Positions 1 through 16,297 of a DNA stretch of 17,593 nucleotides are shown here, piece by piece. The stretch is from assembly GCA_964419615.1 (NCBI GenBank), contig CAYQPU010000034.1, forward strand, positions 1 to 17,593. The letters are read 5' to 3'. Below the pieces are notes generated by a model that was not told the origin of the DNA, did not search any database, and saw nothing but the letters and a program-made list of their open reading frames with translations. The DNA is from an uncultured Methanosarcinales archaeon (GTDB lineage: Archaea > Nanobdellota > Nanobdellia > Woesearchaeales > JAGVZT01). Within the stretch, counting starts at the first letter, position 1. The number at the start of each line of letters is the position of its first letter. Both the position numbers and the translations under genes were made by a program.

Positions 1-51
1 CTTTGGATTATATAATCCTAAAGATTTTTAAGTATTAGATAATCATAAAAG

Positions 52-66
52 CTTATAAATTTTGTC
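52..66 (-). promoter_or_regulatory. Possible BRE/TATA for a transcript running off the left edge
   Basis: The minus strand reads GACAAAA-TTTATAAG downstream of the ackA stop. The target gene is outside the window and the region is AT-rich, so a chance match is possible. Confidence 0.3.
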
Positions 67-95
67 AATAAGAGCACTTTTAAGTGGTATTTAAT

Positions 96-1232
96 TCATT
101 TAATTAACTCAACAGCTTCTTTTGCAATCTGCAATTCCTCATTTGTAGGAATCACTAAAACCTCAACCTTAGAATTCTCAGCAGAAATATTCACCTCATT
201 TTTCTTATTCTTTTTCTCATCAATCACAACTCCAAGCCCAGTTAAGTATTCACAGACCTTACTTCTCACATAATAAGCATTCTCACCAATCCCTCCAGTA
301 AAAACAATCGCATCAACAGAACCTAAAACACCAGTATATGCTCCAACATACTCAACAATTCTATAGCAAAACATATCTAAGGCAAGTTTGGCCTTGTTAT
401 CCTTTTTGCTTTTCTTAAAAACACTTCTTAGATCAGATAAACCACAAATTCCCTTTAAACCAGATTCATGATTAAGACTCCACACAATCTTATTAACATC
501 ATTTCCGGTTTTATCAGCTAGGAATGAAACAACACCTGCATCAATATCCCCTGACCTGGTTCCCATAATCAAGCCTTGCAGTGGAGTAAAGCCCATTGAG
601 GTATCAATAGACTTGCCGTCTTTAACAGCAGTAATGGAAGCACCATTACCCAAGTGACAAGTTATAATATTCTTACCCTTACCTATGATCTTATCAGCTT
701 TATTTGCAACATACTTATGACTAGTGCCATGAAAACCGTACTTTCTAATCCTATATCTCTTGTAATACTCATAAGGAATACCATAAAGATAAGCCTCTTT
801 TGGAATTGTGCTATGAAATGCTGTATCAAAAACAGCAACTTGCTTGGTGTGAGGCATTAACTTTCTGCAAGCCATAATGCCTTCTAGATTTGGGGGATTA
901 TGAAGTGGAGCTAAATCCGCAAGTTCTTTGATATTTTCAATTACTTTATCATTAATCAATGTAGCTTTTTTGTAAAACTCTCCGCCATGAACAACTCTAT
1001 GACCCACAACATTAATTTCATCTAGCCTGCAATAATCAATAATGACTTCCACACAGCATTGAATAGCATGATGGTGATCTTCAATTTTTTCTTTTTTCTT
1101 TTTTCCATTAACAATATGTAGGCATCTATCAAGACCAATACCATCAACATGGCCATTAACAATAACCTCTTTACTATCAAATAATTTATATCTAACAGAA
1201 CTTGAACCTGAATTAATCACCAACACCTTCAT
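96..1232 (-). CDS. ackA: Acetate kinase
   Basis: 378 aa with the family motifs VLVINSGSSS, GHRVVHGG, APLHNP, VFDTAFH, YGFHGTSH, CHLGNGAS, MGFTPLQGLIMGTRSG, FTGGIGEN and IPTNEELQIA. A Shine-Dalgarno AGGTGA overlaps the upstream TAA. Confidence 0.97.
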   Translation of the reverse strand: MKVLVINSGSSSVRYKLFDSKEVIVNGHVDGIGLDRCLHIVNGKKKKEKIEDHHHAIQCCVEVIIDYCRLDEINVVGHRVVHGGEFYKKATLINDKVIENIKELADLAPLHNPPNLEGIMACRKLMPHTKQVAVFDTAFHSTIPKEAYLYGIPYEYYKRYRIRKYGFHGTSHKYVANKADKIIGKGKNIITCHLGNGASITAVKDGKSIDTSMGFTPLQGLIMGTRSGDIDAGVVSFLADKTGNDVNKIVWSLNHESGLKGICGLSDLRSVFKKSKKDNKAKLALDMFCYRIVEYVGAYTGVLGSVDAIVFTGGIGENAYYVRSKVCEYLTGLGVVIDEKKNKKNEVNISAENSKVEVLVIPTNEELQIAKEAVELIK

Positions 1233-1241
1233 TTTTTCACC

Positions 1242-2099
1242 TTATATTGATAAAAGTATTATCCCCACAATAATACCCAAAATACCTATATCTTGAATAA
1301 TATGTAACCTTTCCTTTAAAAAAACTTTCGCTAAAATCACAGTAACTGCAGGATATGAAGCAGCAACTGGAGCTACAATAACAGCATCAAGTACATTTAA
1401 ACCATAGCCAAATGCCAAAAAAGCAATGATCCCAATAATACCTATTATACTGAGTTCTCGAATAGGATCTCTCTTTGATAATTTTACATCCTGTTTTATT
1501 ATTAAGATAATTGCAAAAGATAAGATTATGACTAGTACTTGTGCAATCAAAGCTGACCAAAACCAGCCATCAGTTCTTGCTAATGATACATACAATGAAT
1601 TTGCAATACCCCAGCAAAGTGCTGCAAGTGTAGCATATTTTAAGCTTCTAACCACTTCTTTTCTTTTCAGGTGTTTTTTTTCTTTGGTGATTGATACAAT
1701 AATTAAACTAAAAATGATAAGTGCAACTGCCACACTGTTTACCAGATTTAAAGTCTCTCCTAAAAAAAACAAAGAAAAACCTACTATCAGAACTGGCCAC
1801 ATTGAAGACACTGGAACCACAATTGATACTTTTCCAACCTTTAGACCTTTAATTAATGCCAAATTTCCAAACAAGTAACCAAAAGCAACCACAACGTAAG
1901 TGAGCATGTTCTGATTTGATGGAATATGAAATCCAGTCATAAATAAGGTCATAATAATTAAAGGAATAGTACCAAATAAATTAAACCAAAAGTACATCTT
2001 TAAAGGGTTTAATTTCTTTGCAGCTAAAGAACACACATAATCAGATACTCCCCAACAAATCATACTAACAATTCCATAAATAATTCCAAGTTCAATCAT
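1242..2099 (-). CDS. EamA/DMT-family transporter (two EamA repeats, about 10 TM helices)
   Basis: 285 aa and highly hydrophobic. The repeated pattern is 'ICWGV...GKVSIVVPVSSMWPVLIVGFSLFFLGETL' and 'LCWGI...AVIVAPVAASYPAVTVILAKVFLKERL'. It has an ATGA overlap with pta. Confidence 0.9.
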   Translation of the reverse strand: MIELGIIYGIVSMICWGVSDYVCSLAAKKLNPLKMYFWFNLFGTIPLIIMTLFMTGFHIPSNQNMLTYVVVAFGYLFGNLALIKGLKVGKVSIVVPVSSMWPVLIVGFSLFFLGETLNLVNSVAVALIIFSLIIVSITKEKKHLKRKEVVRSLKYATLAALCWGIANSLYVSLARTDGWFWSALIAQVLVIILSFAIILIIKQDVKLSKRDPIRELSIIGIIGIIAFLAFGYGLNVLDAVIVAPVAASYPAVTVILAKVFLKERLHIIQDIGILGIIVGIILLSI

Positions 2100-3040
2100 T
2101 GCGCCTCAACAACAGTTATTGCAGTCACATCAACAATGTCCTGCACACTACAGCCTCGACTCAAATCATTAACCGGTTTTTTTAGACCCTGTAATATAGG
2201 ACCAACTGCCTTAAACTTTCCAAGCCTTTCAACCAATTTATAAGCCATATTCCCACTATTTAAATCTGGGAAAACCAAAACATTTGCATCACCTTGGATT
2301 ATGCTGTCAGGACATTTAATCTGAGCAACTTTTGGAACAATAGCAGCATCCACTTGCATCTCACCCTCAATAATTAAATCAGGATATCTGTCTTTAACAA
2401 TCTTAGTTGCTTCCCTTACTTTATCTACCATTGGATGTTTTGCAGAACCCATTGTAGAAAAACTAAGCATTGCAACCTTTGGTTCAATCCCAAACTTTTT
2501 TGCAGTATTTGCACTATCAATAGCAATGTCAGCCAAATCCTTTGCATCTGGATTAATAGTAATAGCACAATCCGCAAACAACAAGATCCTATCATCATAC
2601 ATCATCAAAAACAATCCTGACACTTTGTGGAACTTCTCATGTGTCTTAATAATTTGAAGAGCAGGAATAACTGTTTTAGCTGTTGAATGAGTACAGCCGC
2701 TAACCAAACCGTCAGCATCCCCCATATAAACCATCATAGTTCCAAAATAACATGGATCTTTAAGCAACTCTTTAGCTTTCTCAATAGTCATCCCCTTGTA
2801 TTTTCTAACTTCAACTAGCTTTTCTGCATACAAATCCATCTTTTCAAAATAATTTGGATCAACAACCTCAACCCCTTCAATCTGTTCACTAACCTGTCCG
2901 ACCATAACAGGTTTTGCAATACCTTTTTCAACAATAATCTTAACAGCGTCAATTACTCTTTGCTCTTCACCCTCACAAAACACCACTCTCTTAGGATCAG
3001 CCTTAGCCTTTTCAAAAATACTATTCATAAATTCTTCCAT
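2096..3040 (-). CDS. pta: Phosphate acetyltransferase (short, stand-alone form)
   Basis: 314 aa with motifs EGEEQRV, FADCAITINP, KVAMLSFSTMGSA, EGEMQVDAA, ANVLVFPDLNSGNMAYKL and GPILQGLKKPVNDLSRGCS. Shine-Dalgarno AGGTGA lies 4 nt before the ATG, and ackA is two genes downstream. Confidence 0.95.
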   Translation of the reverse strand: MEEFMNSIFEKAKADPKRVVFCEGEEQRVIDAVKIIVEKGIAKPVMVGQVSEQIEGVEVVDPNYFEKMDLYAEKLVEVRKYKGMTIEKAKELLKDPCYFGTMMVYMGDADGLVSGCTHSTAKTVIPALQIIKTHEKFHKVSGLFLMMYDDRILLFADCAITINPDAKDLADIAIDSANTAKKFGIEPKVAMLSFSTMGSAKHPMVDKVREATKIVKDRYPDLIIEGEMQVDAAIVPKVAQIKCPDSIIQGDANVLVFPDLNSGNMAYKLVERLGKFKAVGPILQGLKKPVNDLSRGCSVQDIVDVTAITVVEAQ

Positions 3041-3072
3041 GAAATCACCTAACAGAATTAATTAATAGAGAT

Positions 3073-3087
3073 TATTTAAAGTTTACT
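3073..3087 (-). promoter_or_regulatory. Archaeal BRE + TATA box for the pta-EamA-ackA operon
   Basis: The minus strand reads AGTAAAC-TTTAAATA, with the TATA ending 33 nt before the pta ATG. This predicts a short leader that just includes the Shine-Dalgarno. Confidence 0.6.
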
Positions 3088-3120
3088 GTAGAAAAGAGTA
3101 TTAAAACAAACAAGTTTAAC

Positions 3121-3127
3121 AGAAAAA
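3121..3127 (-). terminator. Possible oligo-T terminator after the orphan gene
   Basis: TTTTTCT follows the TGA directly, ahead of further T-rich sequence. The tract is short. Confidence 0.3.
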
Positions 3128-3577
3128 TCAATTGGTCATGTGGTAGCCAATAAACACTGCATTCAAGTCTAGAAAATGCATGTCTCCATTTGAATCCAAA
3201 GGTTGGTAACAAGTATTTCTTGCATTTCCATCTTTTGTTGTCCAAGACCGTAAAAAATCAAAACTTTGATCTTTAACATGTTTGCCTTGGTGAATCCATC
3301 TTTCTTTGGTTCCAACAATATGTGTATAGTTATAATCCTTTAAAACTAGGAATTTAGCACCACTCTTAACAACATCATTAATAACTGAATCAGTAGCAAG
3401 TTGCAAAGCAGTTTTAACATCTGTTCTTTGTTTGTCCGCATAATGTTCTTGTGCTTCAATACTTATGCCTTTACCCAAAAAAATATCTTTGTCAGTAAAA
3501 CTAACTTGTTTGGATTCCAAACCCAAGTCATTTAAAGCTTCATCCAAGGAAACATAGACCTTTGTTTTGCATGTCAT
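3128..3577 (-). CDS. Hypothetical soluble protein (149 aa from the second ATG; ORF track starts at 3598), possibly a YbjQ/UPF0145-like fold
   Basis: Clean ORF with its own BRE/TATA. The TATA ends 2 nt before the 3598 ATG but 23 nt before the 3577 ATG, so 3577 is the likelier start. The fold idea rests on a weak pattern only. Confidence 0.7.
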   Translation of the reverse strand: MTCKTKVYVSLDEALNDLGLESKQVSFTDKDIFLGKGISIEAQEHYADKQRTDVKTALQLATDSVINDVVKSGAKFLVLKDYNYTHIVGTKERWIHQGKHVKDQSFDFLRSWTTKDGNARNTCYQPLDSNGDMHFLDLNAVFIGYHMTN

Positions 3578-3600
3578 GTAGTATTGAGAATTCCTCATTT

Positions 3601-3615
3601 TATATAAATCTTTCC
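3601..3615 (-). promoter_or_regulatory. Archaeal BRE + TATA box for the orphan gene (leaderless transcript predicted)
   Basis: The minus strand reads GGAAAGA-TTTATATA, placing the TATA at -31 to -24 relative to the A of the ATG at 3577. Confidence 0.65.
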
Positions 3616-3660
3616 GATAATTACTACTGCACAGTAAAATACTAGATAAATAAAACGATA

Positions 3661-3675
3661 AATAAAAAAAAAGAA
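3661..3675 (-). terminator. Oligo-T terminator closing the four-gene surface-protein operon
   Basis: The minus strand reads TTC-TTTTTTTTT-ATT (a T9 run), starting a few nt after the TAG at 3681, as expected for an archaeal intrinsic terminator. Confidence 0.6.
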
Positions 3676-3680
3676 TCCAC

Positions 3681-4097
3681 CTACCAAATCCTTCTTAAAA
3701 TAACATCCATTTTTCCTTCATAAAAACCATGTTCAGTATTTCTTGGGACATATACTTCAAGCTTAACTGGTTTATGTTCACCAGCATCTAAATAAAAATT
3801 ATAATCCGAAACGTTAATCCATTTTGAAAATTCACCATACATTCTAATTGTTACTTCAACAGGAATGGTATTATTATTCGTAACAAGAAATTCTCTGTTC
3901 CCATAACCTGGACTGGTCACCATACCAAAATGCATTGCATCTACGTCAGTATTAAGTCCAATATGTTCTCCAACTTTAAGATCCATTGGTATAGCTGTTG
4001 CTTCAACAACAATAAAATAAGAATAAAAAATTGAAGTCAAAGCTACACAAACGAGTGCCGTTGAAATTGCAATAATTAAAAAGGCTTTGTTCTCCAT
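3681..4097 (-). CDS. N-terminally anchored exported protein with a single Ig-like beta-sandwich (candidate minor fibre subunit)
   Basis: 138 aa with a hydrophobic segment at about residues 6-30, then alternating beta-strands, a DAMHFG motif and a C-terminal 'GFYEGKMDVIL' strand. It has a TAATG overlap with the upstream gene. Confidence 0.8.
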   Translation of the reverse strand: MENKAFLIIAISTALVCVALTSIFYSYFIVVEATAIPMDLKVGEHIGLNTDVDAMHFGMVTSPGYGNREFLVTNNNTIPVEVTIRMYGEFSKWINVSDYNFYLDAGEHKPVKLEVYVPRNTEHGFYEGKMDVILRRIW

Positions 4098-5230
4098 TAT
4101 TTTCTCTTTCTAATAAACAATATAATAATCAGTATTAATAACAATGCAATCACAATACTAAGTCCAACAACAGCCATCATTGCTGTATCCATTCCTGTTG
4201 GTTCTTCAACCTCTTGCTTTGATTCTTCTATAATATCCACAACAGATATAATTCCATCTTCTTTTGTAAACTGTTCAGCGTAATGCAATACAATTTCAAT
4301 TGGGTATTCATCTAATTCAAGTCCAGATGCATCATAATGTGCAGTAAACCTTTTTTGTTCCCAACCGTGCATAACATAACTTGGAGTTCTTTCAGTTGTG
4401 CCATTGATAGTTACGGTTGCATACACATTGTCAATAGCTGAATTCCATTGACTCTCCACATCAATGAACACTTTGTTAATTTTCCCCCTCTGTAAAACCC
4501 TGGTGTAATTTGCAATGCCCATATAAAGATGACCTATTCTAAAACGTTTTTTAACACCAATAACATTCCCACCATCATAACTCACATTACCAACAGCCAT
4601 GTATGGTCCTGACATCATATCAATAGTCCCCATAGTCATTGGAAATTTTTCAATAACCTTTGAAGGAATGGCTTTTGTTTCAGAGTCAAATGTTTTAATT
4701 AGTTGATTATCATCTTCATCATAAACTTTTACTTTTGCCCAAACTGTATTAAGATCAGTAGTTCCTAAGTTATTAACAAGTACTTCAAAATTAACATCCT
4801 CCCCTTGATTAACACTTGGTGCACTAAGTTTCATCTCAGCATAAACTCCTGGATACGGTGCTTGGATAAGAATAGGTGTGTGTATCTCAGCTACACCACC
4901 AACCATATTTTCATCCTCAGGAATTTCTAGTGCAACAAACTCAATTCCATTTTGACCCGGTTTGGGCATAGTTTCAGGCAAATTAAGAATTAATCGTACT
5001 GTTCTGGCTCCCTTACCTGGAGCAGGATCTTCTAAGGTGATGTATGGATCAAGTTCAGCACCAATGAATGAAATATTAATTATTTTTGCTCCCCAAACAT
5101 TAAATGTTAATGTCTTTTGCATGTTAGGTTCAAAATCAAACCTATAATAAGCTGGAGCAACAGAAAGAGCACAAACTTGTTGAATAAATAATAAGAAAAA
5201 AACTACACCAACAATCTTCCCTCTTTTCAT
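4097..5230 (-). CDS. Secreted multi-beta-sandwich protein with a C-terminal membrane anchor (CARDB/Ig-like middle domain; candidate chaperone-like component)
   Basis: 377 aa. Signal peptide MKRGKIVGVVFFLLFIQQVCA, three beta-rich segments including 'VNQGEDVNFEVLVNNLGTTDL', and a C-terminal TM followed by RKRK. Confidence 0.8.
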   Translation of the reverse strand: MKRGKIVGVVFFLLFIQQVCALSVAPAYYRFDFEPNMQKTLTFNVWGAKIINISFIGAELDPYITLEDPAPGKGARTVRLILNLPETMPKPGQNGIEFVALEIPEDENMVGGVAEIHTPILIQAPYPGVYAEMKLSAPSVNQGEDVNFEVLVNNLGTTDLNTVWAKVKVYDEDDNQLIKTFDSETKAIPSKVIEKFPMTMGTIDMMSGPYMAVGNVSYDGGNVIGVKKRFRIGHLYMGIANYTRVLQRGKINKVFIDVESQWNSAIDNVYATVTINGTTERTPSYVMHGWEQKRFTAHYDASGLELDEYPIEIVLHYAEQFTKEDGIISVVDIIEESKQEVEEPTGMDTAMMAVVGLSIVIALLLILIIILFIRKRK

Positions 5231-5248
5231 TTCAAGATACCTAATCAG

Positions 5249-5965
5249 TTACCAACCGCCACCAGTCAGATATGTTGTTGCTGTTGCAGTGATTGTACAT
5301 GTTTGCTGACCTTCACCAGCATAAATAGTATCGTAGGGGATTGTTAAATTCAGATGAAGATTTAATGAATCATTAGTATCATCAAATACTAACCCTGGTG
5401 GTGCACAAACCCAAAACATACTTGTGTTAACAGTTGTCCAGTTTTCTGCCGGGAAAGCAACACTCTGAGTGTTAGAAAGGTTTACACATGAACCCGATTC
5501 ATTCTCTTCCATATTAAATCTAAACTCTTCTTCTAAAGAAGCTCCTCCACCAACATAAGCACTGGCATTAACATCAAAAGTTAAATTAATGGTCATGTTA
5601 TTTGTACCATCATTTTCAATTTCCAAACTTGTTAGGTTAGCAGCAATACTAAAATTAATACATCTATCCTGTCCATCTCTTATTCCTCCACCACTCCCCG
5701 AAGCTAATGAGCAGTTAGTGTTTCCTCCAGTTGTATTAACCATACCTGTTCCAAAATCAAGTGTGTCAATGGAAAATCTAATTGATGCTGTAGAAACAAT
5801 CTCAACTGTTGCGGTTGCAGTTTCAGTATCCAGAGCATAACCTAAAATGTCTGGGACACCTACTTTTGCTAATCTGCTTAAACTGATAATTGTGCCAACA
5901 AGTGATACAACAACTGCAATAATTAAAACCGCAGCCAGTGTTTTATTTGATACCTCTTGAGCCAT
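5249..5965 (-). CDS. Exported, acidic surface glycoprotein with an N-terminal hydrophobic segment (candidate major fibre subunit)
   Basis: 238 aa with a TM at about residues 10-29, 13 N-x-S/T sequons after the TM, 5 Cys and a DTLDFG motif. Strong Shine-Dalgarno AAGGAGG and a TAATG overlap with the upstream gene. Confidence 0.85.
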   Translation of the reverse strand: MAQEVSNKTLAAVLIIAVVVSLVGTIISLSRLAKVGVPDILGYALDTETATATVEIVSTASIRFSIDTLDFGTGMVNTTGGNTNCSLASGSGGGIRDGQDRCINFSIAANLTSLEIENDGTNNMTINLTFDVNASAYVGGGASLEEEFRFNMEENESGSCVNLSNTQSVAFPAENWTTVNTSMFWVCAPPGLVFDDTNDSLNLHLNLTIPYDTIYAGEGQQTCTITATATTYLTGGGW

Positions 5966-6174
5966 TATGTATCCTCCTTTATACTCTCTAATTCAGGTGA
6001 GATCTCCGGCTTAAGTATGGTGATTGCAGCAGAAGCCTGTGTTTGTTGTGGAACCTCACTTATACGTGCACTAGTAGATTCATCGAAAACTATCCATGTT
6101 CCTAGAACCGACATAACTATAATTAAAACAAGAATAACAAGTATCACTTTCTTTGGTATATCTTGACCAATCAT
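5965..6174 (-). CDS. Small single-TM protein (69 aa), first gene of the surface operon
   Basis: It follows a canonical promoter, its stop overlaps the next ATG (TAATG), and its TM region aligns without gaps to the N-terminus of the 238-aa neighbour. Confidence 0.75.
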   Translation of the reverse strand: MIGQDIPKKVILVILVLIIVMSVLGTWIVFDESTSARISEVPQQTQASAAITILKPEISPELESIKEDT

Positions 6175-6214
6175 TCTGTCGACCCTTTTTCTTTGTTAAT
6201 CTGTGCAACTAATA

Positions 6215-6229
6215 TATATAAACTTTTCG
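6215..6229 (-). promoter_or_regulatory. Archaeal BRE + TATA box for the four-gene surface operon
   Basis: The minus strand reads CGAAAAG-TTTATATA, a near-consensus BRE directly before a consensus TATA, which ends 41 nt before the ATG at 6174. Confidence 0.75.
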
Positions 6230-6448
6230 TTTATTTTTATATGTAAATATATTCTTTTTCTCCTTTTTTGTGCACAAATCATTATTTATACTGGTTATTT
6301 ACTATAAAATGACATTCCCATATATAAAAGAATGCAACCACTTTAAAGTAGATATGTGTTTTTAATATATAGTCACCTGCAATAATGATATTAGATTTTT
6401 TGGCAGCTTCCTAATACTAAACCTCACAAATAATAATCGAGTTTTGGT

Positions 6449-7225
6449 TTAGTATATCTTCAATGCTTTTCTAAGTACTGTACTAAACACAAGTGAAAAA
6501 ACAAAATATATTGCAAACCAGCCAGGATAATATCCAAAAGCATTAAATTTTCCAAGTGGTCTTGTTTGCTGCAAATCAACACTAATTTCCTTAATGTTAC
6601 TATCACTACCAATACCATCTCCCATTGGAATAATAAAAAACAGCTTCCTTTGTTTTTCAAGTTTAGGATTATTATTACCTTCACCAACCAAAATGTTTAG
6701 TTTGTATTCCTCATTGCCATACTGATAATTAAGTTCATGACTCCCTTCCTTGCCTGTTAATGTCCATGAGACAGATTGGCCTTCAATCACTTGGACTGAG
6801 TTATCAAGCAGCTCCAACCCTTCAGAAACTTTAAGAGTAATATCACCTGGTGCAACACTCTCAAACTTAACAGTTGAAGTAAACTCTTGGCCTGGCATAA
6901 GTTGAGCATAAGCAACAGTTGAACCAAGCCAATTAAAGACCATGAAAATAGGAATCAATGTAATAAGCATAATCTTCATTGTTTGAGGAAGTATCTCCAT
7001 GGAAAGTTCCATAGACTTTTTCTGCATCTTCATCATCTTATCTGGATTATCCTTGTACTTTTTCATATCCTCTCTCATCTTCTTTTGTTGATCTTGGATT
7101 GACTTCATCTTTTTTTGATCAGTAACCAATTTCCAAGTAAACATACTAAACAAAGAAACAAGCAGAGCAACAACTCCAATAACTACCACAGAAGGTAACG
7201 CTAAAAAACTTGTAACTAAACTCAT
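6449..7225 (-). CDS. DUF106 / EMC3-TMCO1-like Oxa1-superfamily membrane insertase with an inserted extracellular beta-domain
   Basis: 258 aa arranged as TM1, a Met/Lys/Gln-rich coiled coil (DQKKMKSIQDQQKKMREDMKK), TM2 (MLITLIPIFMVFNWL) and a terminal TM3 (GWFAIYFVFSLVFSTVLRK). It sits in the usual position after secY and has Shine-Dalgarno GAGGTG. Confidence 0.88.
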   Translation of the reverse strand: MSLVTSFLALPSVVVIGVVALLVSLFSMFTWKLVTDQKKMKSIQDQQKKMREDMKKYKDNPDKMMKMQKKSMELSMEILPQTMKIMLITLIPIFMVFNWLGSTVAYAQLMPGQEFTSTVKFESVAPGDITLKVSEGLELLDNSVQVIEGQSVSWTLTGKEGSHELNYQYGNEEYKLNILVGEGNNNPKLEKQRKLFFIIPMGDGIGSDSNIKEISVDLQQTRPLGKFNAFGYYPGWFAIYFVFSLVFSTVLRKALKIY

Positions 7226-7247
7226 ACTACACCACCTCTTATATTTT

Positions 7248-8660
7248 CTATACTTTTACAAACTTACGCAAAGCAGGATGCATATCCATCATATGCTGTT
7301 TTGCAATCTCTTCATACAACTTGTAAATAATCATAACAGCAAGCAAAATACCTGTTCCTCTTGAAAGAGCTCCCATTAAATCAGCAATTCCTGCCAAAAA
7401 TCCAACAAAAATTGCACCCATTACTGTTAAGGGCATAATGTATCTGCTTAATATTCTTTCTAAAATCCTTTCATCTTTTCTAAAACCAGGAATGTGTAAA
7501 CCTGAAGACATCATATTTTTTGCCTGACTTCTTGCATCCATTCCAGATGTTTGAACCCAGAATAAGGAGAATAGTACAGAACCACCTATCATAAATAACA
7601 TATAAACAAGAGCATGTGATATATCTGGCCAAGTCATACTTGATGTAACAATCTTTTGCATCATATTTGGCGCGGCAAGCCATGAAACAAGACCTGTCGA
7701 AGGAGTATTACCAACAAAGGTTCCGAGAATAGGTCGACCCCAATTTTGCAGTAACCTAGCCCACAACTGAAGATTGGCCATAAATGCAGAAACTAAAATA
7801 ACTGGAATGTTACTTGTGTAAATAAAATTCAATGGCCATCTAATGCCTTGACCTCTAACTCTTCCAAAACTAAGTGGAATTTCAATTTTCATAGCTTGAC
7901 CATAAATGGAAATTGCAAACACGATAACTGTCGCTAGTATTGCAGTCAATGCAACCATAACACTAGTTAGACCTTGACTTCCTTGTGGTAGGAAATAAAA
8001 TATTTGAAGAAGCCTACCAATCGGCTCTTCTCCTGATTGGAAAAACAAATGACCACTGGATGAAAACGGACTTAACAAACTCAAAAATATTGCTTTAGAT
8101 ACACCAGCTGCAATAAACAAGCTAATACCTGAACCAAAGCCCCATTTACTAATAACCTCATCCATAAACATAATTAAAAAGCCGCCAATAAACAACTGTA
8201 CAACAAGTAAAACTTGTACTATAAAGTATTGCTGAGTTCCTGCCATACTAGCGGCCGGTGTAAGTCCTCCCATAAATACATAAATAATACCCTCAAAAAT
8301 TATAAAAAATATTGACATCGCTTTCTGCAGCCCTTGGTAAAATGCCTTATCATCTGGTTTACTTAAGTCTAATTTTAACAAACCTGCACCAGTCAATAAT
8401 TGTAATACAATAGATGCGGTTACGATTGGACCAATACCAAGTGAAATTAAACTTCCAAATGAAGCACCGAGAATAATCTCAAGTTGTTCAAACCGAAACT
8501 GATTAGCTTGATCAAGTCCAAACAAAGGAATCATTCCTAAAATAAAGAATAGAACTAATGTGATAGCTGTCCATTTTAGCTTTTCCTTAAAAGGTAACCT
8601 CTTTTGTGTTGGTCCCTTAACTTCAGGAAGATTCAAAAGTATTTTCTTAATTAAAGACAT
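7248..8660 (-). CDS. secY: Preprotein translocase subunit SecY (Sec61-alpha)
   Basis: Archaeal SecY motifs LGIGPIVTASIVLQLL, DEVISKWGFGSGISLFIAAGV, PLNFIYTSNIPVIL and GTGILLAV. The start is set at ATG 8660 because GAGGAG precedes it; the ORF track uses GTG 8666. Confidence 0.98.
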   Translation of the reverse strand: MSLIKKILLNLPEVKGPTQKRLPFKEKLKWTAITLVLFFILGMIPLFGLDQANQFRFEQLEIILGASFGSLISLGIGPIVTASIVLQLLTGAGLLKLDLSKPDDKAFYQGLQKAMSIFFIIFEGIIYVFMGGLTPAASMAGTQQYFIVQVLLVVQLFIGGFLIMFMDEVISKWGFGSGISLFIAAGVSKAIFLSLLSPFSSSGHLFFQSGEEPIGRLLQIFYFLPQGSQGLTSVMVALTAILATVIVFAISIYGQAMKIEIPLSFGRVRGQGIRWPLNFIYTSNIPVILVSAFMANLQLWARLLQNWGRPILGTFVGNTPSTGLVSWLAAPNMMQKIVTSSMTWPDISHALVYMLFMIGGSVLFSLFWVQTSGMDARSQAKNMMSSGLHIPGFRKDERILERILSRYIMPLTVMGAIFVGFLAGIADLMGALSRGTGILLAVMIIYKLYEEIAKQHMMDMHPALRKFVKV

Positions 8661-8662
8661 TC

Positions 8663-9121
8663 TCACTCCTCGGTTGAAGCCAAAGCTTCTTTTGGAAGAA
8701 TTACTTCTCCTCCGGCTTTGTTAATTTTTTCAACAGCACTTTTTGAGGCACTGCTTGCAGTAATCTTAAACTTCTTAGTAACCTTTCCACTACCAAGCAG
8801 CTTATCATAACCTAATTCCTTTAAATTAACAACAATAAATCCACTCTTTTCTTTTAAATCGAATTTTGTGGATATTCCCTTTTCAATATCAGAAACATTA
8901 ATTGATCTTACATTCTTCCTTTTTTTAATTTTAAAACCATACTTTCCCAAGTATTTTGTATTTTTCCAAATTGAGGGTTTATTTTGTTCTCCTCTCTTAC
9001 CTCTACCAGCGTTTCCTCTTCCGCCTCTGCTTCCAGCTCCTCTATGTTTTTTCTTTGAACCCCAGCCATGAGTACCACTACCTCGCTGTCTAACAACCTT
9101 TTTCCTTCTTCTAATAACCAT
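8663..9121 (-). CDS. rpl15: 50S ribosomal protein L15 (uL15)
   Basis: Motifs RGSGTHGWG, HRGAGSRGGRGNAG, LGYDKLLGSG and ASKSAVEKINKAGG. The ATG at 9121 overlaps the rpl30 stop (TGATG); the ORF track uses TTG 9124. Confidence 0.96.
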   Translation of the reverse strand: MVIRRRKKVVRQRGSGTHGWGSKKKHRGAGSRGGRGNAGRGKRGEQNKPSIWKNTKYLGKYGFKIKKRKNVRSINVSDIEKGISTKFDLKEKSGFIVVNLKELGYDKLLGSGKVTKKFKITASSASKSAVEKINKAGGEVILPKEALASTEE

Positions 9122-9552
9122 CAAATCATCCTCTTGATTAAATCATTAATTTTTTTGCCTCTATCTCCAAGAGAGCCACCTTGCTTAAAACTTTTCTTAA
9201 TACCCATTCTTTCAAAACCACCCTTTGGCGGATCTAATCTAAAACAAGGCATGTACTTTTTTTTGTTAAACTCAAAATACTTGGACTTATACTCAATTAA
9301 GCCTTTTGAATCTTTAACTCTGCCTTTGTAAGGCTTTGCCTTTTTTTCAACCAATAATTTTAAAGTATCATCATCAATCTCACCAAATGTAACAAAATCC
9401 TTGACTTTCTTGATCATTCCAGCCATACTTGGATTATTATCCACCACAGCGCAGCTGTGAGTTCTAACAATGTTCAGCATCTCCATTGTAGTCTTAACAT
9501 CTCTTCTAAGACCTACTCTTCCTCTTAACCGTACAACTGCTAATTTACTCAT
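9121..9552 (-). CDS. rpl30: 50S ribosomal protein L30 (uL30, long archaeal form)
   Basis: Motifs LAVVRLRG, GMIKKVKDFVTFGEI, FRLDPPKGGF and GSLGDRGKKINDLIKRMI. It lies between S5 and L15. Confidence 0.96.
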   Translation of the reverse strand: MSKLAVVRLRGRVGLRRDVKTTMEMLNIVRTHSCAVVDNNPSMAGMIKKVKDFVTFGEIDDDTLKLLVEKKAKPYKGRVKDSKGLIEYKSKYFEFNKKKYMPCFRLDPPKGGFERMGIKKSFKQGGSLGDRGKKINDLIKRMI

Positions 9553-10459
9553 CTTTCTTTACCTTTCCTTCCAGGATACCAAGTAATTTGTAATGATCTT
9601 CTTGGACTCTTGTACTCATCAACTTCTTTAAAGCAGTTAAACAAGCTTTCATTAAATTAACCTTAGTCTGAGTCTGTCCAATAGTATGTGAATAAACATC
9701 TTTTATTCCAGCAAGTTCTAAAATTCGCTGGCATTCTTTTTCAGCAACAAGACCGGCACCTTTAGGAGCAGGCATTAATTTAATCTTTACAGAACCAACC
9801 TTGCCTTCAACTGCAAATGGAATTGAGTGAGGCTCTTTGCATCCGCATTCCCAACTTCCACATCCTCTTCTTATCTTAATTAGATTCAGCTTTGCTCTCC
9901 TAAATGCTTTTTCTCTGGCTGGAACTGTTTCTTTAGCTTTTCCCTTACCAATTCCAACATAACCATTTCTATTTCCAATAACTGCAAAAGTAGCAAATGA
10001 TGGTTTGTTTCCTTCAGGAGTCTTTTTCTGAGTTTGTCTGAAAACTCTTCTCTTTCCTCCACCAAATTTACCTTTAGCTTGACCTGCAAGCAATAAATCC
10101 TGCTCAAGATCCGGCATTAGAGCATCAATAATCTCAGGCTCCATAATTTTTATTCCTTTATCAATAATTTGATCAATATTATCTATTTCACTGGATTTAA
10201 CTTTTTTACCAAGACTAGTTCTCGGCTTCCAAGCCTCTTTGTCAAATTCTCTTTTTTCTTTTCTATCTGGTCCTCTTCCAGACCTTTTACCTCTTGGTTT
10301 GTTTCTGGATTTAGTACTAGGTGAATCTGCTTTCTTCTGTTTTGGACTATCTTTAACAACCTTTTTTTCACTAGCCTCTGGTTTCTTGGTTGCTAATTCA
10401 GCAGGAGTTTCCTTGGCTTTGGTTTCTTTGTTAGGAGTTTTTATCTCTTCTTTACTCAT
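9545..10459 (-). CDS. rps5: 30S ribosomal protein S5 (uS5) with a long N-terminal extension
   Basis: Motifs WKPRTSLG, GNRNGYVGIGKGKAKE, RRGCGSWECGC, MPAPKGAGLVA and LAGIKDV. Confidence 0.97.
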   Translation of the reverse strand: MSKEEIKTPNKETKAKETPAELATKKPEASEKKVVKDSPKQKKADSPSTKSRNKPRGKRSGRGPDRKEKREFDKEAWKPRTSLGKKVKSSEIDNIDQIIDKGIKIMEPEIIDALMPDLEQDLLLAGQAKGKFGGGKRRVFRQTQKKTPEGNKPSFATFAVIGNRNGYVGIGKGKAKETVPAREKAFRRAKLNLIKIRRGCGSWECGCKEPHSIPFAVEGKVGSVKIKLMPAPKGAGLVAEKECQRILELAGIKDVYSHTIGQTQTKVNLMKACLTALKKLMSTRVQEDHYKLLGILEGKVKKDE

Positions 10460-11010
10460 TTTATATCCTCAATCTTCTTTTTAACTAATTTGAAATGCTT
10501 CTCAATATCTTTTGGATCAAGTTTATTTTTTGCATACTTTGAAAAAACATCTGGATTACTTTTTGCATACTCTGCAATATGTTTACCATTAATCCTTTCT
10601 TCAGGTGGGAAAATTTCTTTCGAATGAGCAATTTTCATGCCACCATCAACAGCTCCCTTTAACAGGGCATAAATTCTTGAACCTTTGCTACTCTTAAAAT
10701 CACCAATATCTAAAACAGCTTCTTTTTTCTTTGATTTCTTAGCAATTAAAAAACCAACAAGATATGCAGCTGGAATATTTCCTCGATTACCTTTCCATCC
10801 AAGTTTTTCAAGTTCTTTGGAATGTGCACTACAAATTAATTTATCCCCGCTAGGTTCATACTTAACAACCTGTGCAAGAATATTTTTAGATGAAGGTCTA
10901 ACAACTAATCTTGGCAAGGCAGACTTAACTAACTTCAGTCTATTATGATAATTAGTTTTCCCTTGCCTTTTCCTTCTAAAATCTATTGTAAATGTTTTAT
11001 GCCTTCTCAT
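10456..11010 (-). CDS. rpl18: 50S ribosomal protein L18 (uL18, archaeal type)
   Basis: Motifs RRKRQGKTNYHNRL, PRLVVRPS, NIPAAYLVG, ALLKGAVDGG and ERINGKHIAEYA. Confidence 0.96.
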   Translation of the reverse strand: MRRHKTFTIDFRRKRQGKTNYHNRLKLVKSALPRLVVRPSSKNILAQVVKYEPSGDKLICSAHSKELEKLGWKGNRGNIPAAYLVGFLIAKKSKKKEAVLDIGDFKSSKGSRIYALLKGAVDGGMKIAHSKEIFPPEERINGKHIAEYAKSNPDVFSKYAKNKLDPKDIEKHFKLVKKKIEDIK

Positions 11011-11452
11011 TTTTTGCTAATTTATTCTCCTCAATATAAAGTTTGATATGTCTTTTGCTTCTGAAAAACCCTCCTTTGACCTTTCCATAAAGCATTCTAT
11101 AATCCTTTCTTGCGATAATTTCCTTATCTCTAAGTTCTTTAAGGAATCTTCTCATGATCCTAACCTTATTAATCCATTTCCTCTTTTTTGAAAGTCTGGC
11201 AGTCTTCTTCCCTTTCTTACTTCCTTCGCCGCTCTTTCTTCCCTTTCTTTTTTGAACAAGAATCTTTCTTGCCCTTCCTCTTGAAGTTGAATTGGATGGC
11301 TTTTTCATAATAGCATGATCCTTTATTAGTTGTCTAATATCAAACTTAGTGATTGCTTCACCAATCTCATCCAATCTACCTGGATTAAACCACACCTTCT
11401 TTGGTGAACACTTCATTACATCTGCAGCCAATCTTTTTCTTGATCTTAACAT
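10997..11452 (-). CDS. rpl19e: 50S ribosomal protein L19e (eL19)
   Basis: Motifs KRLAADVMKC, KVWFNP, AITKFDIRQLI, GEGSKKG and LYGKVKGGFFRS. Confidence 0.97.
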   Translation of the reverse strand: MLRSRKRLAADVMKCSPKKVWFNPGRLDEIGEAITKFDIRQLIKDHAIMKKPSNSTSRGRARKILVQKRKGRKSGEGSKKGKKTARLSKKRKWINKVRIMRRFLKELRDKEIIARKDYRMLYGKVKGGFFRSKRHIKLYIEENKLAKNEKA

Positions 11453-11461
11453 TCTAACTCC

Positions 11462-12070
11462 TTACCTTTTTTTTGTCAAAAGCTTATCTTGTTCCTTTTT
11501 CTGCTTGTCTTTTATTTCTTTTTCAGTCTCAGGTTTTTTCTCATCAGAGTCCTTTTTTACCATATCTTCAATAGAATCCGACTTCGCAGACTTTTTCTTT
11601 TCTTTCTCAATCTTTGCCTTTTCCTTTTTCTCTTTATCAAGCTTTTTTGCTTTTGAAGCTTTAATATCCTTTTTAGCATCTTCCAAATATCCCTTTGGAT
11701 CAACTAAGTTTGCAAATGTAAATCCTTTATCCAAAGCTTCCTTTACAATCTCAAGCTTTTTTCTACGACCAATTTTTGAAATAATAATGGCATGTTTTTT
11801 TGGATCAAGCTCTTGTAGTGAAGCTAGGTTTGCTACATTTACCAACTCTTGCCCAGATCGATGTAAACCTCTAACTTCTTTAGGTCCTCTCCATCCTGCA
11901 TCAACACATCTTCTATAACCCCTGAACTTGTGCCTCATCTTTGAATGTAAACCTTTTGGCTTTCTCCATTTTTTCTCAAGCCGTTTCATCTTATGAGCAT
12001 CTTGTCTAATAAACTCAGGTTTCTTTTTTCTGATTGTTTCCCTGATCTTTAGTAATTTTTCTTTATCCAT
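11462..12070 (-). CDS. rpl32e: 50S ribosomal protein L32e (eL32) with a Lys/Glu-rich C-terminal extension
   Basis: Motifs KKPEFIRQD, KWRKPKGLHSKMR and GPKEVRGLHRSG. It lies between L6 and L19e. Confidence 0.96.
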   Translation of the reverse strand: MDKEKLLKIRETIRKKKPEFIRQDAHKMKRLEKKWRKPKGLHSKMRHKFRGYRRCVDAGWRGPKEVRGLHRSGQELVNVANLASLQELDPKKHAIIISKIGRRKKLEIVKEALDKGFTFANLVDPKGYLEDAKKDIKASKAKKLDKEKKEKAKIEKEKKKSAKSDSIEDMVKKDSDEKKPETEKEIKDKQKKEQDKLLTKKR

Positions 12071-12071
12071 T

Positions 12072-12608
12072 TTATTTAGCCTTTAGAGTTATGTAAATTC
12101 CATCTTGGAAAATTCTGTGATCATATTTTGTTCTCTTTGTTAATTGTTCAATAGAAGCTGCTGTTTGTCCTGCAAGATCCTTATCAATTGACTTAACTTC
12201 AACCTCATCTCCTTGCACTTTGACATCAACACCATCCCTTAGTTTAAGCACTCTTGGAATCTTTTCTCCAAAAAAGTTTTTAACAATAAATTCTTTATTA
12301 TTAACGCTAACATTCATAGGGAAATGCCCTGAACATATCTTGAGTTTGTACACATATTCATCTTGTACACCTCTAACCATGTTATTAATATGAGCATTGA
12401 AAGTGCCAATAAACATCTTCTCTCTTTTGCTTGCTTTTTTTGCGAAAATTCTAACTTTACCATCTTTAACTTCAATAGTAACTCTTGGATTAAGCAACTT
12501 TTTTTCAAGTTTGCCCTTTGGACCTTCAACTACGACAATATCATGATCAGTCTGCACTTTGACAGCCTCAGGCAGTTCAATGATTTCTTCAATAATATCA
12601 GCTTTCAT
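12072..12608 (-). CDS. rpl6: 50S ribosomal protein L6 (uL6)
   Basis: Motifs VVEGPKGKL, HINNMVRGV, SGHFPMNV, NFFGEK, AGQTAASIEQ and RIFQDGIYI. The start is ATG 12608, just after the rps8 stop. Confidence 0.97.
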   Translation of the reverse strand: MKADIIEEIIELPEAVKVQTDHDIVVVEGPKGKLEKKLLNPRVTIEVKDGKVRIFAKKASKREKMFIGTFNAHINNMVRGVQDEYVYKLKICSGHFPMNVSVNNKEFIVKNFFGEKIPRVLKLRDGVDVKVQGDEVEVKSIDKDLAGQTAASIEQLTKRTKYDHRIFQDGIYITLKAK

Positions 12609-12609
12609 C

Positions 12610-13002
12610 CTAGTAACAATAGGCAAATAACCTTCCTCCAAGTTTCTTTTTCTTTGCTTCTTTGTGAGTCATAATTCCTTGAGTTGTTGAAACAATTATG
12701 ATCCCAAAATCCTTTGCAGTCAGATACCGTTTTTCAAATTTCTCAAATTCAGTATTCTTAACTGAAAATCTTGGTTTTACAACACCACATTTGTTAATCC
12801 TATTAATTAATGCAACAGTAAGGTAATTACCTCTGTTTGTTTTCTCTTCTTTGAATTCCCCAATGTAATGATTATCCTTCATTAATTCCAACACTCTCTT
12901 AATAATCTTAGAGCTCGGGCTAACCATAATCTCTTTTTTTCCAACCTTCTCAGCATTAAGAATGCTACTCATCACATTTGCTAACGGATCGTTTAATACC
13001 AT
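12610..13002 (-). CDS. rps8: 30S ribosomal protein S8 (uS8)
   Basis: Motifs [40 protein letters not shown] and GGRLFAYCY. An alternative ATG at 13008 overlaps the rps14 stop. Confidence 0.97.
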
Positions 13003-13007
13003 ATTCA

Positions 13008-13238
13008 TCAACTATATTTTTTAAACCCAATTTTCTGGGCTATTTCTCTAAAACAGTGCCTGCATAAATTCAGACCATACTTTCCAACATGCCCCCCAAT
13101 TCTCTGGCACCTTCTGCATCTTCTGTTTACCAAACCACAATTTCTCTTTTTTGGTTGGTTGTGTTTTAGAAACTTAGCAAGCTTTACTGGCTTGTTCTTC
13201 AATTGCTTAAACACTTTCTTGTGATCACTTACAGTCAT
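13008..13238 (-). CDS. rps14: 30S ribosomal protein S14 (uS14, zinc-ribbon type) with an N-terminal extension
   Basis: Pattern CRRC...[15 protein letters not shown]...GFKKY. It lies between L5 and S8. Confidence 0.96.
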
Positions 13239-13747
13239 TCTATATCAACCTCAATCTTAAACTTATTTTTCATAAAATCTATTGCGTCTTGCTTTTGAAC
13301 TAAGTGGGCTTTCCCTACTTTTGCCTTAAGCAATTTTCTTTTTTTAACTCTAAATCCTGCTCTTTGTAAAGTAACACAAACTTGCAGGCCAATAACACCT
13401 ATGTCTGGATCATATCTCATACCTGGAACATCAACATACTCTACTAAACCAAAATTAACATTACCATGTTCATCAAAACAGTTTGGTTTTAACTTATTTT
13501 CAACAGCTTCTAATAATCTTTTTAGTAAATCTTCTGCATCTTTTTTCCTGACTGTAACTTTACATCCAACTGGAAGTCCTGGCCGAACACCCCAGGTCGG
13601 AATTCTCTTGCTTGAGATGCTCTTAATTGGCTTTCTACCTGTAATATTTTTTAAAAGCACAAGAGCTTTTGATAATTTATCCTGGTCTTTTCCTGTACCC
13701 ATATTTAGGGTAACCTTCTCAATCCTTACTTCTTTCATCTTATTCAT
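13235..13747 (-). CDS. rpl5: 50S ribosomal protein L5 (uL5)
   Basis: Motifs [48 protein letters not shown] and RAGFRV. Confidence 0.97.
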
Positions 13748-14439: not shown

Positions 14440-14441
14440 TC

Positions 14442-15512: not shown

Positions 15513-15513
15513 T

Positions 15514-16085: not shown

Positions 16086-16297
16086 ACTTTTTTGTCCTCT
16101 CCTCCTTGTTTTTCATTAAGTAATGTGTAAGCCCGAGCAATCATCTTTTTTGTTTCCTTGATTAATCCAGGACTTTTTGGAGTAGTACCTGTAGCTACTT
16201 GGGCATTTAACTTGATAAGTTCCATTCTGGATTCACTTATCCTTTCCTTTAGTTGAGCTGGACTCATCGCCCTTAGCTCCTTCATTATCTTGCTCAT
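16082..16297 (-). CDS. rpl29: 50S ribosomal protein L29 (uL29)
   Basis: Pattern KELRAMS..QLKERI.E.RMEL, then PGLIKETKKMIARAYTLL. It follows S3. Confidence 0.92.
   Translation of the reverse strand: MSKIMKELRAMSPAQLKERISESRMELIKLNAQVATGTTPKSPGLIKETKKMIARAYTLLNEKQGGEDKKV

Follow-up and report, generated by a model that had tools for sequence, protein, structure and literature searches.

The operon p69-p238-p377-p138, four co-directional genes named here after the length in amino acids (aa) of their products, lies in a 17,593-nucleotide stretch of archaeal DNA (contig CAYQPU010000034.1, positions 1 to 17,593, of assembly GCA_964419615.1), which was analyzed at its full length and to which we refer as the window. 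The genome was deposited as that of an uncultured Methanosarcinales archaeon and is placed by GTDB in the Woesearchaeales. On balance, we favor the view that this operon encodes the core of a non-type-IV archaeal surface fiber, which would be assembled at the cytoplasmic membrane through donor-strand complementation and exchange aided by a chaperone and would work like the Elr/WxL and Pam pili of bacteria. Little is known of the molecules by which DPANN archaea, believed to live on other cells, stay attached to them; the putative fiber would likely serve to fasten the cell to hosts or surfaces. A preliminary description of the sequence had proposed an undescribed pilus-like system of this general kind; what it had observed is confirmed by the present analysis, and its interpretation is in part supported.

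The four-gene module is conserved and self-contained. A survey of the loci of relatives, carried out with tblastn/BLASTP and with hidden Markov models on the fetched loci, found the genes p69-p238-p377-p138 in this sequence in another 20 genomes of the order, almost all of differing genera and families, which is more than chance would produce and agrees with the earlier proposal of a single functional unit. A variant order, p377-p69-p238-p138, is found in one genome (G012), and another (G003) carries three genes for p238 and two each for p69 and p377. The expanded locus of the latter (contig C5, L011 5059-11383) begins with an adhesin-type gene and a p377 paralog, which are followed by three p238 paralogs, two identical copies of p69, the second p377 and one p138. 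Adjacency to the genes for SecY and the DUF106 protein, as seen in the window, is kept only in a genome of the same genus, and the module is therefore self-contained; a functional linkage between the operon and SecY/DUF106 was considered and rejected on the same grounds.

Profile searches indicate how widely the module is spread, the resulting tallies of genomes being counts and not statistics, as related genomes are not independent. The p377 profile has matches in 95 of the 151 genomes sampled within the order and the p238 profile in 101 of the 201 sampled within the phylum, other orders of the class among them, with as many as 11 p238-profile matches in a single genome (G187). All of the p238-positive genomes common to both samples (32/32) have p377 as well. 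Of those listed in both samples without p238, G065, G023, G059 and G024 lack p377 too, G073 has a p377 gene at the extreme start of a contig and G037 yields a weak p377 match only. The tallies include three unpublished genomes, two in the p377 tally (G127 and G138) and one in another tally (G006), and a locus of G138 (L045) contributes one of the 35 rows of alignment A6 and one syntenic locus; no conclusion rests on unpublished genomes. Clustered at 50% identity, the p238 family numbers 2,379 representatives (E <= 1e-3), the named members of which are all annotated as hypothetical and carry no Pfam domain. The closest public homologs are named 'Candidatus Woesearchaeota archaeon', in keeping with the DPANN host that had been suggested from the letters of the sequence.

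The candidate shaft subunit of the putative fiber is p238. Its AlphaFold2 model, built with 150 relatives (predicted local distance difference test, pLDDT, 88.4), presents a helix (residues 6-35), a linker of lower confidence (36-50) and a beta-sandwich (61-231), thus bearing out the N-terminal helix and beta-sandwich expected of this protein. Conservation in the family starts with a leader and helix (aa 3-32), in which [DE]-[IV]-S-N-[KR]-T-L-A precedes a helix of 22 residues that keeps S21, G24 and T25. A variable linker leads from there to the motif [IL]-T-G-x-A and to an alternating strand, T-G-T-A-x-L-T-I. The body that follows is characterized by S-I-x-F ... I-D-F-G-x-G-x-V-N, four near-invariant cysteines and a C-terminal strand T-x-T-A-T-G-T. 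Within the motif, and over 150 family sequences, T41 is conserved in 132, G42 in 146 and A44 in 116.

This T-G-x-A motif is best read as a signal peptidase I site, because divergent p238 homologs, which are devoid of the long conserved helix, possess an ordinary Sec signal peptide, the end of which coincides exactly with the aligned position (for instance ...TNVMA↓ATDDATITL in L085 615-1226, or ...ITGMA↓T and ...LTGHA↓T in further homologs). For the same reason, the conserved strand probably comes to lie a few residues from the mature N-terminus after the predicted cleavage, as it does in the subunits of TasA, AbpA, thread, WxL and chaperone-usher fibers. In the monomer model this strand (residues 49-57) is outside any sheet, according to DSSP, and family column statistics identify it as conserved. 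The host genome, which spans 1.48 Mb and is 99% complete, encodes two archaeal signal peptidase I homologs. Contrary to the preliminary description, which took all four proteins to be membrane-tethered, mature p238 is probably not so, given the comparative evidence for cleavage at T-G-x-A. The protein is also rich in N-x-S/T sequons, of which it has 14 (5.9 per 100 aa, versus 0-1.4 in neighboring proteins).

Known families offer little guidance on p238. Pfam and NCBIfam scans returned nothing significant for p69, p238 or p377; p238 itself has no Pfam match at E <= 1, none of the 150 family members matches WxL at E <= 0.01, and Pfam matches among these 150 relatives are scattered and weak (NPCBM_assoc in 4, DUF4402 in 2). 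Searched against the sequences of the PDB, the p238 profile gave a chance lectin match only (E 0.22) and neither TasA nor AbpA. Longer forms of p238 did not appear in the homologous-protein search, which is weak evidence. A SipW/TasA-type signal motif (G-T-x-A-x-F-S-D-T-E-T-S) was considered for p238 and p69 and dropped, as no NCBIfam or Pfam model backs it.

Structural comparison points more consistently in one direction. A wide search of 48,161 PDB chains, independent of Foldseek and in which Z scores below 8 may reflect a common arrangement, ranked TLP-1b first (Z 6.9 over 143 aligned residues), the Hyper2 tube second (Z 6.7, 139 residues), the cannula protein CanA third (Z 6.5, 141 residues) and AbpA fourth (Z 6.1, 123 residues). 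These four top matches, all of them weak, are subunits of donor-strand fibers, and they support, at that level, the donor-strand layout proposed earlier for p238. Further matches include TasA (Z 5.5), Csu (CsuA/B, 5.4) and the thread subunit (5.2, with a root-mean-square deviation, rmsd, of 9.2), and the chaperone-usher subunits FimG, PapK and CsuA/B fall together at Z 5.4-5.7. Foldseek against the PDB gave no match for p238 at E <= 0.001, its weak list being headed by CanA, TLP-1b, CsuA/B and TasA. The comparison with CsuA/B, TasA and AbpA that had been suggested for p238 therefore finds all three among the matches, but every one of them at Z below 8, and a link to WxL comes only as a lead from the ESM Atlas, in which WxL is the named cluster closest to p238 (score 0.80). 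We take the fold matches of p238 as a consistent lead and not as proof.

The smallest protein of the operon, p69, appears to reproduce the N-terminal part of p238. In the alignment of its family, D5, I6 and W27 are invariant, and a helix and a variable linker lead to a strand, G-x-V-x-L-x-I, with no folded body behind it; in many homologs this strand is present twice. The hhalign comparison with the p238 family aligns columns 9-65, from leader through helix and linker to strand (prob 96.9, E 1.4e-10), and p69 is devoid of T-G-x-A. On the basis of these alignments, p69 is a membrane-anchored copy of the p238 strand module. Its gene lies upstream of p238 in most syntenic loci. We regard the protein as a candidate membrane-anchored base or nucleator that would donate a strand, and the anchor role assigned to it in the preliminary description is strengthened by the likeness to p238 without its body.

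The candidate chaperone is p377, for which AlphaFold2 (35 relatives; pLDDT 91.5) models a signal peptide, three beta-domains, a disordered spacer and a C-terminal helix, the same layout that had been read from the sequence. The Sec signal peptide (aa 1-21) is followed by D1 (23-124, ASH-like), D2 (131-233, CARDB-like) and D3 (237-331), and a C-terminal transmembrane (TM) helix (349-376) ends in a basic RKRK tail. Over D1-D2, the best match in the wide structural search is the solved WxLIP of Enterococcus faecium (9i1y_A), with model residues 20-234 superimposed on chain residues 3-263 (Z 12.0, 204 residues, rmsd 10.8). In a similar vein, the family PF11797 (WxLIP_HBD, formerly DUF3324) matches a p377 paralog encoded on contig C40 of the same genome (33.7 bits against a cut-off of 28.9, E 4e-8). 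At E <= 1e-3, PF11797 is found in 10 of 81 genomes of the order, in three of them above the cut-off, and nine of the 10 matches fall inside p377-family open reading frames (ORFs), in D2 or D3; the sole match at that threshold in 14 control genomes is that of Lactococcus lactis. The WxLIP-like architecture and structure of p377 and the presence of PF11797 in some of its paralogs favor the likeness to the partner proteins of WxL loci that had been pointed out earlier. The Foldseek list for p377 is made up mainly of generic tandem immunoglobulin (Ig)/ASH proteins (Hydin, CFAP), with no chaperone of the chaperone-usher class among its top 50. Against PDB sequences, the only return of the p377 profiles was the CARDB domain of PF1109 (E ~0.01-0.05), and a profile search of proteins yielded at least three homologs.

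The neighborhood of the stand-alone p377 paralog on contig C40 (L060 5437-6573) deserves a mention of its own. Divergently oriented beside it lies a gene (L060 3077-5212) for a 711-aa polytopic membrane protein of no clear Pfam family, which bears a faint similarity to the T2SSF-type proteins of the genome (E 0.39 and 0.64).

The fourth protein, p138, had been proposed as a minor subunit, an assignment that the family comparisons do not uphold. The p138-family profile matches the ASH-type Ig domains of CFAP74, FAP65 and Hydin in PDB sequences (E ~3e-5), and hhalign relates p138 to domain 1 of p377 (prob 91.7, E 7.9e-7). The similarity to p238 is marginal (prob 70) and extends from the helix past the D-F-G motif into the strands that follow, and Pfam matches to PapD-like/ASH families are weak, PapD-like PF14874 reaching E 0.11 only. 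Because it aligns with p377 domain 1 and with ASH-type Ig domains, p138 is to be regarded, as far as these profiles indicate, as a copy of p377 domain 1 that stands alone and is anchored at its N-terminus, and not as a minor pilin; it is possibly a second chaperone-like or platform protein. Its gene is kept at the 3' end of the module across syntenic loci. The two motifs that had been noted, DTLDFG (p238, aa 67-72) and DAMHFG (p138, aa 53-58), are both present; D-x-[LM]-x-F-G, which had been likened to the starts of Csu and WxL domains, is no signature of these but the usual first-strand motif of ASH-type Ig domains. Similarly, the alternating strand described after the membrane segment of three of the proteins is clear and conserved in p69 and p238, but much less so in p138.

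Beyond the operon, relatives encode proteins that resemble tip adhesins. These proteins, of 426-1389 aa, are encoded directly upstream of p377 paralogs and match the p238 profile in their C-terminal 110-160 residues. One of 1214 aa (L013) carries N-terminal Laminin_G_3 domains, and another of 587 aa (L011), the N-terminus of which is complete, starts with an ordinary signal peptide. The genome under study has an example of its own on contig C14 (L092 5780-6820), with no p377 gene adjacent: a 346-aa protein in which an N-terminal hydrophobic segment and a 150-aa domain of unknown nature precede a p238-like domain at the C-terminus (profile positions 53-211, E 4.6e-16). By analogy, a C-terminal p238-like domain in large proteins is the architecture of the tip adhesins of chaperone-usher and WxL systems.

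A further, larger membrane protein of 690-940 aa adjoins the module in 8 of the 16 loci first examined, and is encoded on contig C36 in the genome under study. From the N-terminus, it comprises a helix, G-x-x-x-A and a strand-like segment, then a Big_9 Ig ectodomain and, beyond a second helix, a cytoplasmic tail that is helical. At four loci, including that of contig C36, its gene stands beside one for a small cytoplasmic protein of 89-108 aa with the motif F-G-Y-A-L-K-G-R ... G-R-N-N; coordinates of this conserved pair are L029 8041-11129 (G000, contig C36), L011 11778-14848 and L013 2351-5403.

Taken as parts of a fiber, these proteins suggest the following sequence of events. p238 would be exported by Sec, heavily N-glycosylated and cut by signal peptidase I after T-G-x-A, which would leave a free N-terminal strand. 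The free strand of an incoming p238 would displace the chaperone from the previous subunit, so that the fiber would grow from its base. Adhesins with a C-terminal p238-like domain, lacking a donor strand, would start the fiber and end up at its tip. Uncleaved p69 would plug its strand into the last subunit and tether the fiber to the membrane, in place of the sortase/LPxTG anchor of the bacterial system. In this scheme the correspondence with the bacterial roles would be one-to-one: p238 as the shaft, p69 as a strand-only membrane base, p377 as the membrane-anchored chaperone and the C-terminal p238-like proteins as tips.

One precedent is the Elr/WxL pilus of Enterococcus faecalis and other Bacillota; for Enterococcus, an October 2026 preprint reports that WxL clusters build a pilus and that ElrD polymerizes by donor-strand exchange (10.64898/2026.10.17.759780). 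ElrE, a membrane-anchored DUF916/DUF3324 protein, that is, a WxLIP (PMC10599100), acts there as the chaperone, ElrD and ElrC are the pilins, ElrA, with its C-terminal WxL domain, is the tip and the small LPxTG protein ElrB is the base (10.64898/2026.10.17.759780). In both systems, the gene for the pilin or candidate pilin adjoins one whose product combines a signal peptide and Ig-like domains with a TM helix at the C-terminus, the N-terminal strand alternates small and large residues, and a small anchored protein consists of little but a strand (ElrB and p69, respectively). Adhesins with a variable payload and a C-terminal pilin domain and several operons or paralogs per genome complete the list of similarities, to which the superposition of p377 D1-D2 on 9i1y (rmsd 10.8) and the PF11797 matches of some p377 paralogs may be added. 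The differences are nonetheless numerous. The Elr/WxL system has been detected in Bacillota only (10.64898/2026.10.17.759780), whereas the host here is an archaeon; PF13731 and PF06030 are unmatched, D1 of p377 being ASH-like where WxLIP has DUF916; and p377 has three domains where WxLIP has two. The archaeal system also lacks LPxTG, sortase and peptidoglycan (LPxTG is absent from p69, and TIGR01167 reaches E 0.13 only, on p377), its base would be anchored by an N-terminal TM helix, its pilin candidate has a long conserved signal helix and it includes an additional TM-anchored single-Ig protein, p138. Finally, the strand motif is G-x-A-x-L-x-I in p238 as opposed to [ST]-x-[GA]-x-[VI]-x-F. Because the operon falls outside the sequence definition of WxL pili (PF13731, PF06030, LPxTG/sortase), we file the operon as working like a WxL pilus, with a possible distant homology of the chaperones, and not as a member of that group.

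Another precedent is the Pam pilus of Candidate Phyla Radiation (CPR) bacteria, also described in a 2026 preprint, in which PamA/B/E are pilins, PamT is the tip, PamC and PamD are chaperones with a C-terminal TM helix and PamR is the base (PMC13278184). It shares with the reading proposed here the concept of an outer-membrane-free donor-strand pilus in an ultrasmall episymbiont (PMC13278184), two chaperone-like proteins per operon together with a membrane-anchored terminator, and chaperones held in the cytoplasmic membrane by a C-terminal helix, a feature likened by description only. On the other hand, Pam pilins have two domains and an internal linker strand, and Pam chaperones are reported to be FimC/PapD-like, with two domains. 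The module had been called undescribed, and this has to be qualified: systems that follow this logic in bacteria were reported in 2026, but we found in the literature no description of such a chaperone-assisted fiber system in DPANN or other archaea.

Classical chaperone-usher pili (Fim, Pap, Csu) offer similar parallels, in that their pilin is Ig-like and N-terminally extended, their chaperone is likewise Ig-like, their adhesin carries a pilin domain at its C-terminus and they include a terminator, to which the weak PapD-like/ASH matches of p138 and p377 D1 can be added. They differ in that the archaeal system has no usher and no outer membrane and its chaperone would be membrane-anchored, and no sequence-level relationship between the two was detected.

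Several observations weigh against the reading of the operon as a chaperone-assisted fiber. The T-G-x-A motif of p238 stands ~12 residues past the hydrophobic core, a long distance for signal peptidase I, and the helix is more strongly conserved than a mere signal peptide would be expected to be. Every fold match of p238 has a Z below 8, under the level held to be specific, and ASH/MSP Ig domains fit it nearly as well (Z 5.3-5.8). The WxLIP superposition of p377 has the rmsd given above, 10.8, and single CARDB-like domains of unrelated enzymes score equally (Z 11-12.7). In Pfam searches, p377 of the window falls below detection by PF11797, and neither PF06030 (WxLIP_PGBD/DUF916) nor PF13731 (WxL) has a match in the genome at E <= 10. 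Likewise, the p377-family profiles (A3, and A8 made from PF11797-positive members) retrieved no WxLIP chain from PDB sequences. Lastly, p138 has no assigned step in the fiber model.

Some of these points are accommodated by a static membrane-anchored surface complex of p238, p69, p377 and p138, such as a glycoprotein coat or an adhesin holder, which we consider rather unlikely. Here p238 would either keep its helix or be a released monomer whose own strand folds back, and strand complementation would only join neighbors, as in the older reading of WxL/Csc products as 'cell-surface complexes'. Such a complex would fit the membrane helix encoded in all four proteins and the weak fold matches of p238. 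The strong conservation of the leader and helix of p238 and p69, down to the polar S21, G24 and T25, suggests a lasting membrane role, and residues 51-60 reach a pLDDT of 90 in the AlphaFold2 monomer of p238, so that the strand may pack in cis. However, divergent homologs swap the helix for a cleavable signal peptide and retain the strand, and a protein made of no more than a helix and one or two strands, such as p69, makes little sense unless it donates a strand. Tandem p238 paralogs (three in G003, up to 11 profile matches per genome) and adhesins with a C-terminal p238-like domain also fit the logic of shaft and tip, as the fiber reading has it.

It is improbable that the operon encodes a chaperone-free matrix fiber of the TasA/AbpA type, in which p238 would self-polymerize outside the cell and p377 would be an anchor or nucleator like AbpB or TapA. 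The comparison is nonetheless instructive. In TasA/TapA of Bacillus, AbpA/AbpB (PMC9245690) and CanA (PMC12518558), cleavage by signal peptidase I exposes an N-terminal donor strand, as predicted for p238, and the subunit is a jelly-roll or beta-sandwich; the best fold matches of p238 include AbpA, CanA and TasA (Z 5.5-6.5). In Pyrobaculum, the gene for AbpA is followed by that for AbpB, a protein of ~400 residues (410 aa) that combines a signal peptide with three beta-rich domains (PMC9245690), which is, in the part of that account considered here, the layout of the p238/p377 gene pair. Moreover, no chaperone has been identified for the known archaeal donor-strand fibers, namely threads, bundling pili (AbpA/AbpB) and cannulae (PMC9715654, PMC9245690), and the TasA, AbpA and CanA fibers are described as chaperone-free. 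Against this, p377 resembles WxLIP over two domains and has PF11797 in some of its paralogs, and each adhesin-type gene has a p377 paralog of its own, an arrangement that fits one chaperone per substrate class better than a single anchor. An anchor or nucleator is already supplied by p69, and Pfam TasA (PF12389) is not among the matches of p238. In the same part of the account of AbpB, no C-terminal membrane helix and no counterparts of p69 or p138 are described.

The threads of Sulfolobus acidocaldarius (subunit Saci_0406, putative cap Saci_0405; PMC9715654) are an archaeal parallel in general concept, as a glycosylated donor-strand fiber independent of prepilin peptidase. The Saci_0406 subunit has a signal peptidase I site, and a neighboring gene encodes a strand donor without an acceptor site (PMC9715654). 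They differ from the proposed system in the weakness of the fold match, in the isopeptide bonds of threads and in that no chaperone-like gene was identified in the thread cluster (PMC9715654).

Highly improbable, in our view, is a divergent type IV pilin-like set in which the helices of p69 and p238 form the filament core and a PilB/PilC-type machine encoded elsewhere assembles it: a short polar leader and a conserved ~22-residue helix are common to proteins with different C-terminal parts, and the genome does have three T2SSE-type ATPases, T2SSF proteins (these genes lying on contigs C8, C18 and C25) and two A24 peptidase homologs, but the position just ahead of the hydrophobic stretch is occupied, over 150 sequences, by T (103), S (18), A (13) or V (8), and not by the G/A of class III signals, the putative pilins at the genome's own T2SSE/T2SSF locus (small neighboring proteins) start K-K-G↓L, a linker of ~25 residues separates the helix of p238 from its sandwich, some p238 homologs have ordinary Sec signal peptides, the globular fold of p238 matches donor-strand subunits and not the alpha-beta rolls of pilins, and no ATPase or platform gene occurs in ~30 syntenic loci or in the window. 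The non-type-IV nature claimed in the preliminary description agrees with this absence of a class III motif and of a linked ATPase or platform gene. So does its remark that the operon encodes no usher, ATPase or peptidase, since genes for an usher, a pilus ATPase or a peptidase were found neither in the operon of the window nor in the syntenic loci of relatives.

The organization of the locus is summarized in Table 1. The window is AT-rich (~34% GC) and all of its genes are on the minus strand. The operon is compact, with ATAATG overlaps at 5965 (p69/p238) and 4097 (p377/p138) and an 18-nt gap between p238 and p377 (between 5249 and 5230); the four-gene unit, its overlaps and gap, a box resembling an archaeal B recognition element (BRE) and TATA element, and a run of nine T residues were all found as they had been reported.

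Table 1. Features of the operon, with positions in the window and strand
Feature	Position	Strand	Description
BRE/TATA-like promoter box, putative	6213..6229	-	~40-55 nt 5' of the p69 start codon; sequence AAAAGTTTATATATAT
p69	5965..6174	-	69 aa; N-terminal membrane helix, linker, one short alternating beta-strand, no folded body
p69 strand QASAAITIL, aa 46-54	6013..6039	-	Family alignment and hhalign to the p238 strand
p238, candidate major subunit	5249..5965	-	238 aa; leader/helix, linker, T-G-x-A, strand, beta-sandwich
LGYA, aa 41-44 of p238, candidate signal peptidase I site	5834..5845	-	Family consensus [IL]-T-G-x-A
TATATVEIV, aa 49-57 of p238, candidate N-terminal donor strand	5795..5821	-	Family pattern G-x-A-x-L-x-I
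p377, candidate membrane-anchored chaperone	4097..5230	-	377 aa; signal peptide, three Ig-like domains, C-terminal TM helix
p138	3681..4097	-	138 aa; N-terminal TM helix and one ASH/MSP/PapD-like Ig domain
T9 run, candidate archaeal oligo-T terminator	3664..3672	-	9 nt past the p138 stop codon

Comparison with the same-genus genome G001 identifies conserved blocks upstream of the operon. Within the promoter box, CGAAAA-N-TTTATATATAT is invariant and the flanks diverge; a stretch before the start codon, AAAAAGGGT-N-GACA-N-AATG, is almost invariant, the remaining spacer being divergent. A second block, T-A-A-A-G-T-G-N-T-T-G-C-A-T-T-C-T-T-T-T-A-T-A-T-A-T, lies further upstream (~6320-6355, minus strand), is nearly invariant with respect to G001 and, to judge from its sequence, could be a further promoter or regulator site.

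Upstream of the operon, the window holds a ribosomal-protein/SecY block. Directly 3' of SecY lies a gene (6449-7225, minus strand) for an EMC3/TMCO1 (DUF106, Oxa1-type) insertase, which adjoins the fiber operon in this genus only and is 69% identical in G001. The Pfam profile covers aa 8-110 only of its 258 residues, and the protein has an apparent beta-rich insertion of ~120 residues, with a weak PKD-like match at aa 142-173. Downstream of the operon, the Pfam/NCBIfam scan of the window identified a 156-aa ORF, followed by Pta, an EamA transporter and acetate kinase. The 156-aa ORF (3128-3598, minus strand), just 3' of the operon, belongs to no family and has its own TATA-like upstream sequence; at its position, G001 carries a different gene, a 395-aa ORF on the opposite strand. 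The segment 96-3040 (minus strand) encodes, in this archaeal genome, a bacterial-type acetate kinase (96-1232) and a phosphate acetyltransferase (2096-3040), with the EamA transporter between them.

Regarding the meaning of these results, the module is small, self-contained and very common, being present in about half of the sampled Nanoarchaeota/Woesearchaeota genomes. A stronger form of the fiber reading, which we would put forward only tentatively and hold to be possible without calling it probable, is that the operon encodes the first chaperone-assisted donor-strand-exchange pilus of Archaea, distantly related to WxL pili through its WxLIP-like chaperone, with a strand-only membrane base instead of sortase anchoring, and that this pilus is a principal means of attachment to hosts or surfaces. 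If this were true, the statement that WxL-type systems are confined to Bacillota would need revising. If the operon does encode a fiber, Archaea would gain a chaperone-dependent fiber beside the chaperone-free threads, bundling pili and cannulae, and a membrane-anchored chaperone combined with strand exchange would be a general solution to building a pilus without an outer membrane, common to Bacillota (Elr/WxL), CPR bacteria (Pam) and archaea. p238, p69, p377 and the C-terminal p238-like adhesins would then be targets in the search for the host-attachment factors of uncultured symbionts.

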